Source: Escherichia coli (GTDB taxonomy: Bacteria > Pseudomonadota > Gammaproteobacteria > Enterobacterales > Enterobacteriaceae). Taken from it: a stretch of DNA of 46,580 nt. The position numbers were made by a program, and so were the translations under genes. The notes beneath the pieces are model-generated. The model was not told the origin of the DNA. It did not search any database and was given only the letters and a program-made list of their open reading frames with translations. Location: the NCBI RefSeq assembly GCF_003334255.1, contig NZ_QOWU01000043.1; one strand, written 5' to 3'. Shown here in pieces: positions 21,523 through 29,502 of this stretch (position 1 is its first letter; every line of letters begins with the position of its first letter).

Positions 21523-22116
21523 ATGGAAAAATACCTGCACCTGTTAAGTCGGGGAGATAAAATTGGCCTGACATTGATTCGTCTGAGTATTGCAATTGTT
21601 TTTATGTGGATTGGGTTATTAAAGTTTGTCCCTTACGAGGCAGACAGCATTACACCATTCGTCGCAAACAGTCCACTAATGTCGTTCTTTTATGAACACC
21701 CGGAAGACTATAAACAGTATCTGACTCACGAAGGCGAATACAAACCAGAAGCAAGGGCATGGCAAACGGCCAATAATACCTATGGTTTTTCCAACGGTCT
21801 TGGCGTCGTGGAGGTGATTATTGCTCTGCTGGTTTTGGCTAATCCTGTCAATCGCTGGTTAGGTTTATTGGGAGGACTGATGGCATTTACCACGCCGCTG
21901 GTAACACTCTCATTTTTAATCACCACCCCGGAGGCATGGGTACCCGCATTGGGTGACGCTCATCATGGTTTCCCTTATTTATCCGGTGCTGGTCGCCTGG
22001 TATTGAAAGATACTCTGATGCTGGCAGGTGCAGTCATGATAATGGCAGATTCGGCGCGGGAAATTCTTAAACAACGCAGTAATGAATCCAGTTCAACGTT
22101 AAAAACTGAATATTGA
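21523..22116 (+). CDS. rclC: inner membrane protein RclC (YkgB)
   Basis: ORF 21514..22116; start set at MEKYLHL (197 aa); hydrophobic. Confidence 0.85.
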   Translation: MEKYLHLLSRGDKIGLTLIRLSIAIVFMWIGLLKFVPYEADSITPFVANSPLMSFFYEHPEDYKQYLTHEGEYKPEARAWQTANNTYGFSNGLGVVEVIIALLVLANPVNRWLGLLGGLMAFTTPLVTLSFLITTPEAWVPALGDAHHGFPYLSGAGRLVLKDTLMLAGAVMIMADSAREILKQRSNESSSTLKTEY

Positions 22117-22257
22117 TAATCCGAACACTGTCTGTTGTTCACTTTTTCAGGCGTCAGGCCCCCTTTCTGATGATGAAGCCTGACGCCATATTACCGGAGA
22201 TATGACAGAGTGAAGATCAATATCACTCCCTGTTAAAAGGTTTTTGTCGTCTTAGGT

Positions 22258-22289
22258 AAAATACATGATTAATATCAATCATGTATTTT
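22258..22289. promoter_or_regulatory. 13-bp-arm perfect palindrome AAAATACATGATT-aatatc-AATCATGTATTTT in rclC/ykgA intergenic region; candidate operator
   Basis: Direct read; function not established. Confidence 0.4.
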
Positions 22290-22705
22290 TACAGCAAGAC
22301 AACCACGAACAAATTCAGGATTAAAATGTTTTACCGACTCCCCAACATAACCCAAATCAAGCGAACTAATTTGTGCCATTTCTTTATCTGTCAGTGAGAA
22401 ATCGATTTTTGATGGGCATCTGCAATACTCTGAAGCAGACTATACGGAAAATTCCACTGTCAGTCCCTCCATTAGGCATGAACAATGAGTCTACGTTAAA
22501 ACGTAACCTCAAAGTAGTATGTGGATTTTGATATCACTTATGCAAAAAATTCATTAATAATGTAGGACTGAAACCTCTCTATTTTCGGGGACAACGAAGC
22601 AGACGCTACCAGTGCTTTTGCCTTCGCCCTTGCTATTTTTGATACACTTAGGGCCCAGGGTATAACGAAAATGTGCGATATGACAAAGAATTAACGGAGA
22701 ATGAG

Positions 22706-23557
22706 ATGATCAGGCAGAAGATTCTACAGCAGCTCCTGGAGTGGATTGAGTGCAATCTTGAGCACCCTATTTCAATCGAAGATATCGCACAGAAATCTGG
22801 CTACAGCAGACGCAACATCCAGCTTCTGTTCCGAAATTTCATGCATGTGCCTTTGGGAGAATACATTCGCAAACGAAGGCTTTGTCGTGCCGCCATTCTT
22901 GTCCGGCTCACCGCGAAATCTATGCTTGATATTGCACTCTCTTTGCATTTTGATTCACAGCAGTCATTCAGCCGCGAATTTAAAAAGTTATTCGGCTGCT
23001 CTCCCCGTGAATACCGCCACCGTGATTATTGGGATCTCGCAAATATCTTCCCTTCTTTTTTAATACGTCAACAGCAAAAGACGGAGTGTAGATTAATCAA
23101 CTTTCCTGAGACACCTATTTTTGGCAACTCATTTAAATATGACATTGAAGTGTCGAATAAATCACCGGATGAAGAAGTCAAACTACGACGTCATCATTTA
23201 GCCAGATGTATGAAGAATTTTAAGACGGATATCTATTTCGTTTCCACGTTTGAACCGTCAACAAAATCGGTCGATTTGCTCACGGTTGAAACTTTTGCTG
23301 GTACGGTATGTGAATATGCTGACATGCCAAAAGAGTGGACAACGACCCGAGGACTTTATGCCTCTTTCCGTTATGAAGGAAACTGGGAAAATTATCCTGA
23401 CTGGGTGCGTAACATCTATCTGATAGAGTTACCTGCCAGGGGGTTAGCCAGAGTGAACGGCAGCGATATTGAGCGCTTTTATTACAATGAAGATTTCGTA
23501 GAAAAGGATGGCAATGATGTTGTTTGCGAAATTTTTATTCCCGTTCGTCCGGTTTAG
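22706..23557 (+). CDS. ykgA: AraC-family regulator YkgA (N-terminal HTH with C-terminal effector-binding domain), apparently intact
   Basis: ORF 22673..23557 (GTG); preferred start is ATG 22706 with GGAGA 5 nt upstream; AraC HTH near N-terminus. Confidence 0.8.
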   Translation: MIRQKILQQLLEWIECNLEHPISIEDIAQKSGYSRRNIQLLFRNFMHVPLGEYIRKRRLCRAAILVRLTAKSMLDIALSLHFDSQQSFSREFKKLFGCSPREYRHRDYWDLANIFPSFLIRQQQKTECRLINFPETPIFGNSFKYDIEVSNKSPDEEVKLRRHHLARCMKNFKTDIYFVSTFEPSTKSVDLLTVETFAGTVCEYADMPKEWTTTRGLYASFRYEGNWENYPDWVRNIYLIELPARGLARVNGSDIERFYYNEDFVEKDGNDVVCEIFIPVRPV

Positions 23558-23585
23558 TTGGTCACTATCTCTTATTGAGTTTTAT

Positions 23586-23621
23586 CCTTGCCTGATACTA
23601 TTTAATCAGTATCAGGCAAGG
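23586..23621. terminator. 14-bp-stem hairpin CCTTGCCTGATACT-N8-AGTATCAGGCAAGG between convergent ykgA and eaeH
   Basis: Direct read; no strong U-run on either side, so terminator function is inferred from position only. Confidence 0.45.
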
Positions 23622-23696
23622 TATTCAGTGAATAATGGCGTTGAATATTTCAACACCATTATTCTTTATTAGATCGTAACTTTCATACTATTCAAA

Positions 23697-26600
23697 TTAT
23701 GGCATCTCCTCCTCGCCATTTTCAGTCTCTGCAGCAACGGCGTTAATTGTCACCTTCACAGGCGTCATTTCGTACCCGCCATACGTCAGTGCGTTGAATG
23801 TGAACGTATAGACACCTGGCTTGCTGGTACTAAATGTACGCGTGATTTTCCCACCTGAGAAATGGTCAGCCTTCGACGGCAGGAATTGATAATCCTTCTC
23901 CGTCACTCCTTCCGGAGCCTCAATGTCGACCCACATACTTCCTCCTACGGGATTGACTCCCGCCATCAGGGTAACCGTCATTGTTGCAGTAGTCTTCCCG
24001 TCCGCCACCAGAGAATCTACACGTTCTGGAGATGCGGCGAGCACCGCGTTTTTATCATCCGCGACGAATTTAGATTCAGCAGTTTTCGTCGATACCTGAC
24101 CGTTGGCCTGTTCCACTTTCGCCGTGAGTGTATATGTCGCTGCGATAGTGGTAGAGCCGGTGAAAACAGCCTGTCCTTGCTCATTAGTTTTCGCCGTCCC
24201 TTTAGGATCCAGAACTAAATTTTCCGAGCTGGCAGTCAGCGTCACGTCGCTATCCTTCAACAGGTTGTTATTGGCATCAGTCACCGTAACTTTATACGTC
24301 TGTTTGGTTTTGCCATCCGCCACTGCACGGTTGCCAATCACCTCAATACTGGAGATGGTCGCCGTAGTCTTATCGGCCACAAACGTTACAGACTGCGCAT
24401 TCGAAGGCTGGTCATTTCCTGCCGACGCCGTGATCTCATACGTTCCGGCAGTCACGGAGACCACTTTCAGTTCCGCTTTACCCTCCTTGTCGGCGTTCAC
24501 CATGATATTACCGTCTGCAAGCGGTTTGACGCCCCGAGGCAGATTAAAGACGACCACAGCGCCAGGCAGAAGGTTGCCGTATTGATCCTTAACCGTTGCC
24601 GTCAGCGTAAAGGCATCATTGTCGTTTGCCACTTTTGGCGTGCTGCCATCAACCTCCAGGGTCGCCTGACCGGTACTGAAATCCGCCTTGAATTTCACCG
24701 TAACCGTCTTCTGAGCATTATTCACTGAGGCCGTGATGCTGTGTTCCCCCGCAACCGTTGACATAAGCTCAATGTCCACTTTCCCTGCCGCATTGGTTGT
24801 TACTGTATTCCCCGTCTTGCTGGTCACACCCTGCGGTAAAGTCAGCGTAACTTCTTGCCCCTGCAACGGGTTACCATAGCTGTCCACGACGGTCAGGGTT
24901 ATCTGGTTAGCAGACTGTCCATTAGCCAGTTGGTTATTAACCTTCACTGTCATATCACGAATCTCAGCCTTAGATGCGTCACCTGCAACGTTCAGCACCA
25001 GTGGCTGAGCAACGGCATTTTGGCCGTTCACTCGCGGCATCACAGACAACTGACCCGCGGCAGATCCCAGCGTTAAGGTCGCCACGTAGACCCCATTACC
25101 TTTCTCTGTCCAGTTTCCTGCTGAAGGACGCTCACTCCCCGTGCTGGCGGCACCGCTAAACACTGGTGCATCTGGCTTCAGCCCGGTGACCGGGTTCCCG
25201 TACGCATCCTTCACGGTGAAGGTGAGTTCCGTCGTCATTTTGACGGTCGGAGCCTTATTGTCCGCAACAAGCGTAGAGTTCGCTGATGACATCTCTCCGG
25301 CGATGACCGTCAACTGCGCGGCTTCGGTGGCTGCTGGCTGGCCGTTGAAGAGCGGCATGACACGAAGCTCGCCCGTCTTTCCGCCTGTAGTTAACGTAGC
25401 AACATAGGAACAGTCACCTTTTTCGGTCCAACTGGAAACGGTCGCCCCTTCAGAGGCGGTCCCCGTCAAACTTGCCGACAACGAAAGACCACTGATAGTG
25501 TTGCCATGTGCATCTTTTGCAATAAGCGTCACGGTTGTGCTTTCGCCGGCTTTTACGTGATCTTCTGCGACAGAGACTTTCGACTGGTTTGAAGATAACG
25601 CATCAGCCACCACGGTTACTTTTGCCGCATTTGCTGCCGCATCCTGTCCATTTAGCTTCGGCATAACTTCTAATTCACCCGCCGTAGAGCCGAGAGTAAT
25701 CTGCGCAGTCCACGTCCCATCACCATTATTTGTCCAGCCAGATGCCGTAGAACCTACAGCAGCGGCACCCGCTAATGACGGCGCTTCCGGCGTGAGGCTG
25801 GTCACAGGGTTGTCATAGGCATCTTTTGCCGTCCAGATTGCCGTAACTGTACCGCCAACCACCGGTTTATCAGGATTCAGGGTGATGGACGAATGTGCTG
25901 CATCAAGCGGACCGGCAACAAACTTCAGCGTTTGTTGTAATGTGCCCAGCTGATACTGCTCGCTGAAAGCACGCACAACAACGTTTCCGGCACGGGTCGA
26001 AGAAACCGTGGCGCTGTAAACGCCTGGTTTTATTTCCGAAATGGCACCAACGGTTACACCATTAGTGTCTTGCGGAACAAATCGCAAGCGGCTGGCTTCT
26101 CCCGTCACCGGATTACCCTCGGAGTCCACCGCAGTCAACGTCAACGTATAGGCTTGCTGACCATCAGCAACCACATCACCTGACGGCTCGTTAGCGCTCA
26201 GGGTGGAGTTTGCCACATCCATCATCGTGGCCCGCAGTTCTGCAGTGACGGTTTTGCTCATGCCATCAACGCTAACAGTAATCGTTGCCTCACCTGACTG
26301 CGTTCCGGTAGTAAAGACAGACTGATACACCCCTGCTTCAGTTTCGGTGAACTCACCCAGTGTTGGCTTTGCCTGTGATTTAGTGGCCTTCAGGGAACGA
26401 GTCACAATATTTCCAGCCGGTTTGAAGGCTAGTTCAGTCTTGATCTGATCTTTCATGCCCGTGACTGGCTGCCCCTCGGCGTCGCGCAGAGACAGCACCA
26501 GCGGTCTTTGCTCATTACCGTTAGCAAGCATTTGAATACGGCTCTGACCGTCAAGCGTTAACGCCGTGCGATCGGCGCTCATACCTGCTCCGGTAATGAC

Positions 26601-27953
26601 CACCTCTGTCTGCACGCGTTTTGAGGCATTGCCTTTGTTATCGTAGGCAACCGCAGAAATCGCATAATAATTGTCTTTGCCTGGACGATAAGCCGGGAGC
26701 GTTACTTGCCACTGACTACCCTGACCGGTAATTTTGCCACCCTCAGCCAGTAATGACGGCGCTTCCCACTGCACATTTTTCAGTCCGTGAGTTGCTTTGC
26801 TGACCACAAGCCCCAGGGAAAGTGTCTGACCACCCTTACCTTCAATACGTTCAGGCAGAGCAATACGGATCACTTCAGATTTGCGGTACTCAAGAACGAT
26901 GTTGTTATTACGCTCAACCAGGTCATAGCGGCTGCCTACCAGTACCCGACGCTCGCGAATGCTGTCTGTATCGAGTTGTTTCGCCAGAGGTTCGCCAATC
27001 CGATAATTAACTTCCAGGCCAAAGCGAGTGTCATTCTCACCACTCTTGCCCTGCTTATGCCCGGCGCTCAGTGTCAGAAGAGGCACTGGCGTATAGGTCA
27101 CCTCGGCAGAAATAGCATGCGGGTCTTTCTGGCGCTTATCTTTACCAAACAGCCCGACTTCATCGCCATAATACTGTTCATACATCAGGCTTGCGCCAAG
27201 CTGCGGCCAGGCGGGTAAATAGCCCTCAGCACGAATATCCCAGCCATTCGCCGGGCGTTCCTGATAATCCTCAATATCCGGCGATTTTTTCCAGCCAGAA
27301 GCCCGAATATAACCATTGGCGCTCAGTTTCAGATAATCGCGCCAGTATTCCGCACCAACACCAATGCGGGTATGACTACGGGATAAATCATGATCGATAA
27401 AAGTATTCACCCCCGCCATCCAGTCATTTCCTGAAAAATGACGCCAGCCAAAACCAATATTTGACTGAGTACGATCGTCTGTACGATGTATTGCCCCCTG
27501 AGTGAACAACATATTTGTCGGCGTATCATAAATCGGATAAAGCATTTCCAGCGAAGAATCCTTCAGCGAGAAATCTTTATCGACATTCAGTTTGACGCGC
27601 GCAGTACCATATTTCCCGAGCCACTCCTGTATTTCCTGGTTAGCTTTAGCTGTGGCCATTCCGGTAATAAAGTTACGTGTCGCATCGCTATCTGGCTGAC
27701 TGCTTAAAAATGTCCCGGCATTTGCGGCAAACGACGCGACATTTTTCTCCACGTTATTATCAGCAGTTACCGTAGTATTTCCCATGCTCAACCGTGGCTG
27801 AACCGCATGCTGCGCACGTGCCGCCATTACTGGGGTAAAGGTGACAGCGAGTGGAAAAAGAACCTGAACAGAGATATTTGCCCACGCCACGCAGCGGGCC
27901 AGAACTGAATAACGAAATCGTGGTTGTTTATGACCTGTTTTATAATGTGACAT
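23697..27953 (-). CDS. eaeH: intimin/invasin-like adhesin EaeH (FdeC), full length
   Basis: 1418-aa uninterrupted ORF with repetitive Ig-like (Big-type) domains; recognised as EaeH/FdeC. Confidence 0.9.
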   Translation of the reverse strand: MSHYKTGHKQPRFRYSVLARCVAWANISVQVLFPLAVTFTPVMAARAQHAVQPRLSMGNTTVTADNNVEKNVASFAANAGTFLSSQPDSDATRNFITGMATAKANQEIQEWLGKYGTARVKLNVDKDFSLKDSSLEMLYPIYDTPTNMLFTQGAIHRTDDRTQSNIGFGWRHFSGNDWMAGVNTFIDHDLSRSHTRIGVGAEYWRDYLKLSANGYIRASGWKKSPDIEDYQERPANGWDIRAEGYLPAWPQLGASLMYEQYYGDEVGLFGKDKRQKDPHAISAEVTYTPVPLLTLSAGHKQGKSGENDTRFGLEVNYRIGEPLAKQLDTDSIRERRVLVGSRYDLVERNNNIVLEYRKSEVIRIALPERIEGKGGQTLSLGLVVSKATHGLKNVQWEAPSLLAEGGKITGQGSQWQVTLPAYRPGKDNYYAISAVAYDNKGNASKRVQTEVVITGAGMSADRTALTLDGQSRIQMLANGNEQRPLVLSLRDAEGQPVTGMKDQIKTELAFKPAGNIVTRSLKATKSQAKPTLGEFTETEAGVYQSVFTTGTQSGEATITVSVDGMSKTVTAELRATMMDVANSTLSANEPSGDVVADGQQAYTLTLTAVDSEGNPVTGEASRLRFVPQDTNGVTVGAISEIKPGVYSATVSSTRAGNVVVRAFSEQYQLGTLQQTLKFVAGPLDAAHSSITLNPDKPVVGGTVTAIWTAKDAYDNPVTSLTPEAPSLAGAAAVGSTASGWTNNGDGTWTAQITLGSTAGELEVMPKLNGQDAAANAAKVTVVADALSSNQSKVSVAEDHVKAGESTTVTLIAKDAHGNTISGLSLSASLTGTASEGATVSSWTEKGDCSYVATLTTGGKTGELRVMPLFNGQPAATEAAQLTVIAGEMSSANSTLVADNKAPTVKMTTELTFTVKDAYGNPVTGLKPDAPVFSGAASTGSERPSAGNWTEKGNGVYVATLTLGSAAGQLSVMPRVNGQNAVAQPLVLNVAGDASKAEIRDMTVKVNNQLANGQSANQITLTVVDSYGNPLQGQEVTLTLPQGVTSKTGNTVTTNAAGKVDIELMSTVAGEHSITASVNNAQKTVTVKFKADFSTGQATLEVDGSTPKVANDNDAFTLTATVKDQYGNLLPGAVVVFNLPRGVKPLADGNIMVNADKEGKAELKVVSVTAGTYEITASAGNDQPSNAQSVTFVADKTTATISSIEVIGNRAVADGKTKQTYKVTVTDANNNLLKDSDVTLTASSENLVLDPKGTAKTNEQGQAVFTGSTTIAATYTLTAKVEQANGQVSTKTAESKFVADDKNAVLAASPERVDSLVADGKTTATMTVTLMAGVNPVGGSMWVDIEAPEGVTEKDYQFLPSKADHFSGGKITRTFSTSKPGVYTFTFNALTYGGYEMTPVKVTINAVAAETENGEEEMP

Positions 27954-28823
27954 TGAGATAATTTCCTGATGAACGAATTAACGAACATAGGCAGACACAA
28001 ATAATGGCGTCTGCTTGTCAGAAAAACCGGGGATTTCCCGATTTCCTTTTCCGCAGAAAAGGAAATACCTTTATGTAAGAAAGTGCACCGCCACCTAATA
28101 TATCCAGTGCCTATAGCCACTCATCAGGTGGTTGGGCGCGGGATTATATTTTTATTTATGGGGGAAAATTTAGCTTTTTGTGCAAGTCATTAAATAGATA
28201 CCTAAGTTATATTTCTTACTCTGCGGACAGTGAATAATTCACTATTCAGAGTGAATAACAATGACCTGCCTTTAATTAAAACTATTGGAAATACGTCGAA
28301 ATAGGTATATATGCCAGGATAAACCAATATATTTTTTATGGATATTCATTTTCCTTCATCGGACTGTAAATTGCGGAGATATCGAACTTGCACTACCCAT
28401 CGCAACACTCAAACAGATTTATGAATTTCGTTCATAACCCCTGACAAATTCTGCCGTCTAATCGAGCTTTTCCCTTTACGTTATGCTTCTCATGAACGAT
28501 AACACAACTTGTTCATGAATTAACCATTCCGGATAAACTATGGGATCAAATTCAGGCATCGAAAGGAACTGGCTGGTTTCCGTTAATGGATTAAATATCT
28601 ATTATTCTCCCGAGAGTAAAACTATCAAATCAATGAGTAACCGATACAGCCTCACAAATTCTTTCAGATAATTAACCCGTCACTGCGGCACGTTCTCTCA
28701 TAAGGCGTGCCTGCAGTGTAATCCAGTATGTATCCGGCATAGTTGACGGTTTAATAGAACTCAATTCCTCTCCCAGGTCACCAACAACGATATCTTGTAT
28801 AACACCCCAGGAGATACGACATT

Positions 28824-28943
28824 ATGATGAGATGCGATATGCTCCTCAGCACCAATCAACGCCCGGACTGGGCCAGTCTTGAGATCAGACTCATTCCCGG
28901 AACTGACTTCAGGCGACATATATCAATGACGTTGGTGCAATAA
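28824..28943 (+). CDS. candidate 39-aa small ORF (MMRCDMLLSTNQRPDWASLEIRLIPGTDFRRHISMTLVQ)
   Basis: AGGAGA Shine-Dalgarno 9 nt upstream of ATG; terminator-like hairpin about 80 nt downstream; no homologue recognised. Confidence 0.25.
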   Translation: MMRCDMLLSTNQRPDWASLEIRLIPGTDFRRHISMTLVQ

Positions 28944-29024
28944 AAGATAGTTGATGTAATACATCTATTCAAATTTGTGATACATGTCAAAAATTGGTTG
29001 ACCAAACTCGTTATTTATATAAGG

Positions 29025-29049
29025 GCACTTACGAAGTGCACTCTTTTTT
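29025..29049 (+). terminator. intrinsic-terminator-like hairpin GCACTT-acg-AAGTGC followed by a T6 run, immediately upstream of the ykgR ribosome-binding site
   Basis: Direct read; short 6-bp stem with 3-nt loop. Confidence 0.4.
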
Positions 29050-29066
29050 AAAGCGAGGAAGTACCA

Positions 29067-29168
29067 ATGAAAGAGAATAAAGTACAGCAAATCAGTCATA
29101 AACTGATTAATATCGTTGTTTTTGTCGCAATTGTAGAATACGCCTATTTATTTCTCCATTTCTATTAA
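29067..29168 (+). CDS. ykgR: small membrane protein YkgR (33 aa)
   Basis: ATG preceded by GAGGAAG; encodes MKENKVQQISHKLINIVVFVAIVEYAYLFLHFY with one hydrophobic helix; recognised from recall as YkgR. Confidence 0.7.
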   Translation: MKENKVQQISHKLINIVVFVAIVEYAYLFLHFY

Positions 29169-29502
29169 TAACGGAAATAAACTGTTCACTTCAGTGATAT
29201 TTAAAATATGCATCCTCTCCCTTTTTTGTAAGTAATTATTATATCCGTGGGAGAGGAATACACGCTGTCAGGTAATCAATCATACTGCGATAAATTATCG
29301 GCCAGTAAAGTGGAGATAACCTCCATTCTCGAAAAATCCATACTCTCAGCAAAACCATCATCAATCACTCATCCAGGCGTTTATGGGAGCGTCACCAATG
29401 GCTGCTAACAATGCCAGAGTTCCCCGTTGCGAAAATTCCACATCCACAAAGAGTCACAGGGATTGAGTGTTGAAATGATCCGGATGAGCATGTGTCTTTA
29501 TG

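Follow-up and report, generated by a model that had tools for sequence, protein, structure and literature searches.

An undeleted ykgA–fdeC locus, with a predicted inverse autotransporter adhesin, in a close relative of Escherichia coli K-12

The gene fdeC (also called eaeH) lies uninterrupted beside a complete ykgA in the window analyzed here, by which we mean the whole 46,580-nt stretch of Escherichia coli contig NZ_QOWU01000043.1 (assembly GCF_003334255.1). This is almost certainly the ordinary, undeleted rclC–ykgA→←fdeC–ykgR locus of a near-K-12 strain, with fdeC predicted to encode an adhesin of the type Ve class. FdeC is a vaccine-candidate adhesin. The first-pass annotation of this DNA claimed a single uninterrupted frame of 1418 codons, a complete AraC-type ykgA, and no insertion sequence (IS) between the two, and the reading frames described below agree with it on all three points. 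Its accounts of the K-12 lesion and of the strain background stand only in part.

The two genes face each other. On the minus strand, fdeC occupies 23697..27953 as a single open reading frame (ORF) with an ATG start and 0 internal stops in the ORF list. A run of 1418 random codons would be free of stops with a probability of about 3e-30. On the plus strand, ykgA occupies 22706..23557 as a complete ORF of 283 codons. Its ATG at 22706 has GGAG six bases to its 5' side and is the RefSeq start in strain G1/2, where the DNA is the same. A frame extended to a GTG at 22673 lengthens only the mechanical ORF. The span 22706–27953 runs from the start codon of ykgA to the start codon of fdeC, and the genes converge on a 139-bp gap (23558–23696) in which no IS-like sequence was found. 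The locus order, rclC–ykgA–fdeC–ykgR–ykgMO–ecp, and its position are conserved in the annotations of G1/2, MG1655, UTI89, and BL21.

The gap between the genes is highly structured. Two strong hairpins form at 23586–23621 and 23630–23664, and the RNA fold of 23555–23700 reaches −47 kcal/mol (z = −7.8), with 0 of 200 shuffles folding equally well. The sequence TTTATT lies just past the second hairpin on the plus strand. Judged by the fold, the two hairpins are probably transcription terminators. A promoter and terminator consensus scan of 22100–28900 gave counts not above those of shuffled sequence and flagged neither gap hairpin. Rfam, run on the whole window, returned IS009 at 38498–38697 as the sole match, unconnected to fdeC or ykgA.

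The long frame had been taken for an intimin/invasin-like adhesin, and RefSeq, Pfam, solved structures, and alignment to the UTI89 protein all identify it as FdeC/EaeH. At matching coordinates, RefSeq labels the identical DNA of G1/2 "inverse autotransporter adhesin FdeC", and the exact 1418-aa protein is named FdeC in NCBI/UniRef. Read by eye from the translation, residues 1–47 (27813..27953, minus strand) are probably a long N-terminal signal peptide. They contain a basic region, a hydrophobic core, and A-R-A (an A-x-A motif), ending ...MAARA before Q48. An outer-membrane β-barrel translocator spans residues 76–350 (26904..27728, minus strand), where Pfam IAT_beta matches over its full model (3–279 of 279, E = 1.4e-108). 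Residues 113–357 match the solved barrels of invasin (4E1T, E = 1.6e-81) and intimin (4E1S, E = 1.5e-70).

The barrel is followed by the passenger, approximately ten tandem Ig-like domains at residues ~358–1387 (23793..26882, minus strand), assigned from Pfam, 6TQD, and 4E9L. Pfam Invasin_D3/Big_1 matches fall at ~474–573, 579–680, 684–783, 788–885, and 891–986, and further ones at ~1000–1090, 1094–1193, 1200–1298, and 1313–1387. An extra Ig-like unit at 358–474 matches intimin D00 (PDB 6TQD), and the crystallized FdeC fragment 4E9L matches residues 595–1008 (E = 7e-248). Both the N-terminal barrel and the Ig-like repeats expected at first pass are present. A barrel placed N-terminal to an Ig-like passenger is the reverse of the classical autotransporter order. 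By its barrel and its domain order, FdeC in this window would belong to the inverse autotransporters (type Ve secretion).

YkgA carries both domains of a Rob-like regulator. Pfam places HTH_18 at residues 27–106 (E = 2.2e-19) and HTH_AraC at 69–105, as expected of an AraC-type double helix-turn-helix, and a complete GyrI-like domain at 127–281 (model 2–155 of 155). This pair of domains assigns the 283-aa protein to the AraC/XylS family with a Rob-like layout. Residues 5–281 align to positions 3–286 of the RobA profile with 193.3 bits, below the RobA equivalog cut-off of 380. YkgA is therefore a Rob paralog, and the assignment to Rob itself was rejected. The protein is 92% identical to UTI89 YkgA, and at least 1000 contigs encode exactly this protein. 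An earlier paper places YkgA alongside MarA, Rob, and SoxS, stating that its function and targets are not identified (PMC2064960). A note from 2000 (Martin, Gillette and Rosner, Mol Microbiol 37:978, cited in PMC2064960) is, by its citation, devoted to ykgA. A literature search on "ykgA" did not find a functional study.

On the alignments, the K-12 lesion is an IS3-associated 3.7-kb deletion, not a gene split by insertion. The MG1655 annotation (b0297–b0300) gives an eaeH pseudogene of 888 bp, IS3A of 1255 bp, and a ykgA pseudogene of 687 bp. The first-pass annotation had described IS3 damage in K-12 and a damaged ykgA, and this layout bears out both. Its description of fdeC as split does not hold, as 3717 bp are actually replaced. 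BLAST against MG1655 gives two blocks, both at 99.97% identity: window 1942–23360 corresponds to K-12 337900–316482, and window 27078–45099 corresponds to K-12 315232–297209. The intervening 3717 bp (23361..27077) are missing from MG1655, with the 1255-bp IS3A in their place, as seen from the BLAST blocks, junction alignments, and annotation. That piece takes with it the 3' 79% of fdeC, the entire gap including both hairpins, and ~197 nt from the 3' end of ykgA. The lost part of fdeC is absent from the whole K-12 locus. K-12 retains 876 nt from the start of fdeC and ~655 nt from the start of ykgA, in both cases the same DNA as in the window, and its YkgA is without roughly the last 65 residues of the GyrI-like domain. 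The window holds the whole 23361–27077 segment and no IS3, and is not the K-12-type eaeH'::IS3A::'ykgA allele.

The ends of IS3A in K-12 suggest how the lesion arose. The right end is canonical (…GGATCA). The left end is without the terminal TGA that is present in another IS3 copy (canonical, TGATCTTACCC). The left junction reads …GTGCC/TCTTACCC, and TCTT at this junction is common to IS3 and native fdeC. No 3-bp duplication was found in the bases flanking IS3A at the junctions. Simple insertion of IS3 was rejected on the junction alignments, the BLAST blocks, the missing TGA, and the lack of 3-bp flanks. We infer that IS3 entered ykgA first, and that a deletion at the TCTT microhomology then took 3 nt of the IS end together with the 3.7 kb. 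In the construction of F' proAB lac, the K-12 IS3 at the fdeC junction is known to have been a site where the F plasmid integrated (PMC11148124). Being a deletion, the K-12 lesion would not be repairable by IS excision.

The DNA around the lesion is nearly that of K-12 itself. In 39.4 kb of flanking sequence there are 9 substitutions relative to MG1655 and 2 single-base differences in homopolymer runs. The latter are single-A differences at 28988 and 30828, seen against both K-12 and G1/2; neither is within fdeC or ykgA, and they are possible assembly errors. Collinearity with K-12 ends at 45099, which in K-12 is the edge of the CP4-6 prophage. The window is also nearly identical to commensal strain G1/2. 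Given such near-identical flanks, the window comes from a very close K-12 relative that has kept the undeleted state. The "non-K-12 background" proposed at first pass is right in that the K-12 lesion is absent, but with flanks 99.97% identical to MG1655 this is not a distant pathotype.

Most E. coli have an intact fdeC–ykgA locus, which is ordinary rather than distinctive and has been in print since 2012. Among 5426 complete E. coli genomes, 4595 (~85%) contain 80% or more of the 3717-bp piece absent from K-12, and 4538 contain 80% or more of the 7-kb region 22000–29000. The K-12 fdeC–IS3 junction occurs in 301 of the 5426; among the three such genomes listed are a strain named K-12 and ER1709, a laboratory strain of K-12. 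Identity over the fdeC region is bimodal, either ≥99% or 90–95%; the window's allele falls in the higher class, those of ExPEC and O157 in the lower. IS insertions within fdeC are present in other strains. Nesta et al. 2012 (PMC3324786) describe a 1416-aa FdeC in IHE3034, an N-terminal pseudogene in K-12, and full-length fdeC in commensals, HS and SE11 among them, as well as in most pathotypes; the share is 99% for ExPEC isolates and 83% for those from commensal or faecal sources. Intact fdeC and ykgA are thus already known, with both the K-12 pseudogene and the full-length commensal gene published in that paper.

BL21 has lost fdeC by a different route. An internal piece of fdeC of ~3.0 kb (23978..26996) is absent from BL21 in an IS-free deletion, which BLAST resolves as two blocks sharing 6 nt where they meet. 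The BL21 annotation gives the 5' fragment of fdeC as a pseudogene and ykgA as intact. The fdeC loss in BL21 is independent of the loss in K-12.

If FdeC behaves like other inverse autotransporters, a path to the cell surface can be proposed. The long signal peptide (~1–47) would direct FdeC through Sec, and the N-terminal 12-strand barrel (~76–350) would insert into the outer membrane, after which approximately ten Ig domains, forming the C-terminal rod, would be threaded out through the barrel and displayed at the surface. There it might bind epithelial cells and collagen and promote aggregation, as for the 94%-identical ExPEC protein; FdeC of IHE3034 mediates epithelial adhesion, collagen binding, and aggregation (Nesta et al. 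2012, PMC3324786). A 2024 study describes hundreds of FdeC sequence variants and weaker adhesion by a commensal-type variant than by an APEC variant (PMC11143625). It is reasonable to consider the adhesin of this strain potentially functional. The ykgA product, in turn, would be an activator of the Rob/SoxS/MarA type with a GyrI-like ligand-binding domain.

This proposal presumes that the frame is real and that it is used. An assembly or fusion artifact, or a hidden frameshift, would leave the adhesin not intact, and the single-A differences at 28988 and 30828 from the two closest relatives are the error type of some sequencing platforms. A frameshift would break the fdeC ORF, however, and none does. 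Aligned end to end with FdeC of UTI89, an independent uropathogenic strain, the frame is collinear over 1416 residues, 1332 of them identical (94%), with 0 gaps. The gap-free alignment rules out fdeC as a fusion artifact. Window DNA at 22000–28987 is identical to G1/2, and the same FdeC protein is found on 96 contigs. We rejected the artifact reading on the gap-free alignment and the exact-sequence matches, and consider it scarcely conceivable. A locus that is intact yet silent, either repressed or drifting toward loss as in K-12 and BL21 and of no phenotypic consequence, is a more serious matter, though we regard it as unlikely. Regulation of fdeC by H-NS and temperature is the reported subject of Easton et al. 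2014, and the AT-rich stretch upstream of fdeC (28000–29500, GC 0.38–0.41 vs 0.50–0.58 inside the gene) fits H-NS silencing. FdeC is expressed mainly on host-cell contact (Nesta et al. 2012, PMC3324786). Two laboratory lineages have lost the gene independently, and the IS insertions in other strains point the same way. Given the reported regulation, an intact fdeC is not necessarily expressed. Against silence, ~85% of complete genomes still have the full-length frame, and they span allele classes 6–10% apart in DNA. Retention across such diverged alleles argues for purifying selection, and so for use under some condition.

A further proposal ties the two genes together. YkgA would control fdeC in response to a small molecule sensed by its GyrI-like domain, and K-12 would have lost the whole module. 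The genes are neighbors that the inspected strains have retained jointly. YkgA resembles Rob in layout and includes a ligand-binding domain, and putative regulators have been described in the fdeC cluster (Nesta et al. 2012, PMC3324786). The genes are nevertheless convergent and have no common promoter region, BL21 retains ykgA without an intact fdeC, and the targets of YkgA are stated as unknown (PMC2064960). No experiment or binding-site evidence for the pair was found. That YkgA regulates fdeC is a guess from adjacency, and control of fdeC by a ligand-sensing YkgA is improbable. We likewise give little credence to the broader reading in which this near-isogenic, pre-deletion relative shows the exact history of loss and IS3 in K-12 and, with YkgA controlling fdeC, what was lost was a sensor–adhesin module. 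If YkgA did prove to be a ligand-responsive regulator of fdeC, loss of the module could contribute to the poor gut colonization of K-12.

For the undeleted, near-K-12 locus that we favor, there is little meaning past correct annotation, as a full-length FdeC with a complete YkgA is what E. coli usually carries. Its practical value lies in the near-K-12 background. As a clean donor, the window could be used to put fdeC–ykgA back into K-12 for functional studies of YkgA.

Compared with known systems, the window protein is closest to FdeC of ExPEC. FdeC of UTI89/IHE3034 (ECOK1_0290) and EaeH of ETEC H10407 are the same gene at the same chromosomal position, and the UTI89 protein has the same barrel-plus-Ig-array architecture. 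Full-length collinearity, the 4E9L match, and position all place the window gene in the FdeC/EaeH ortholog group, and the comparison with ExPEC FdeC suggested at first pass gives 94% identity without gaps over 1416 residues. Within residues 595–1008, the 4E9L stretch, 396 of 414 residues are identical (~96%). The two proteins differ by ~84 substitutions, including G847C, and in their final few residues, with 1418 aa in the window and 1416 aa in UTI89. The aldo/keto reductase genes that flank the locus are complete in UTI89, whereas the window has remnants of 129 nt and 90 nt, as in K-12.

Intimin of EPEC/EHEC and invasin of Yersinia share the barrel (4E1S, 4E1T) and an Ig-like passenger (1CWV, 6TQD) with FdeC. 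The listed Pfam output for FdeC contains neither LysM nor a C-terminal lectin-like domain (Tir- or integrin-binding, Intimin_C). The NCBIfam model intimin_all matches residues 58–466 only, with 385.6 bits against a cut-off of 1400. Intimin proper was rejected as the identity of FdeC on the score below cut-off, the N-terminal-only match, and the lack of a listed LysM or lectin-like domain. The Ig array of FdeC in the window is also longer than that of intimin or invasin. YkgA, for its part, resembles Rob, which has SoxS and MarA as shorter paralogs, in combining an N-terminal helix-turn-helix with a C-terminal GyrI-like domain.

K-12 carries an IS3A element in place of the 3' end of fdeC, the intergenic gap and the 3' end of ykgA. 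This element (27230-28484 of L003, the K-12 locus) was compared with another IS3 copy that has the canonical end. The left end of the K-12 element lacks the canonical terminal TGA, and fdeC joins IS3A at a TCTT common to both. A 3-bp target duplication is absent. Together, these features favor a microhomology deletion over transposition.

BL21 has also lost fdeC. An internal deletion of ~3.0 kb (window ~23978-26996) is present at the BL21 locus; the two sides overlap by 6 nt where they join, and ykgA is intact. This deletion is IS-free and independent, and FdeC has therefore been lost in both main laboratory lineages through different events.

The segment missing from K-12 includes two strong hairpins that take up the intergenic gap where ykgA and fdeC converge (23586-23621 and 23630-23664; RNA fold, -47 kcal/mol, z = -7.8). 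A TTTATT on the plus strand follows the second hairpin. The two hairpins are probably terminators.

Within FdeC, residue 847 (25413-25415) is a cysteine, lying in the motif GDCSY, in both the window and the nearly identical commensal strain G1/2. UTI89 FdeC and the crystallized 4E9L construct instead have glycine at this position. Cys847 looks unpaired and is located inside an Ig-like domain.

Elsewhere, the window differs from MG1655 and G1/2 alike by a single A at two intergenic homopolymers, 28988 (A5 versus A6) and 30828 (A7 versus A8); these could be genuine variants or errors of assembly. On the minus strand, 38498-38697 matches the Rfam model of the E. coli small RNA candidate IS009 over its full length, at 202 bits (gathering score, 117). 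Collinearity with K-12 stops at 45099, where the CP4-6 prophage has its right edge in K-12 (~297205-297209). Over 45099-46580 the window instead holds part of an integrase gene, a gene of the AraC family (45589-46341, minus strand) and, at 46504-46580, one end of an IS1, a layout common to many other strains.

The ykgA-fdeC pair is itself flanked by gene remnants, one on either side. At 22275-22403 on the minus strand, 129 nt remain of an aldo/keto reductase gene (ykgQ in K-12), and at 28505-28594 on the plus strand lies a 90-nt remnant (ykgP in K-12). In UTI89 both places are taken by complete aldo/keto reductase genes. This older decay is common to the window and K-12.
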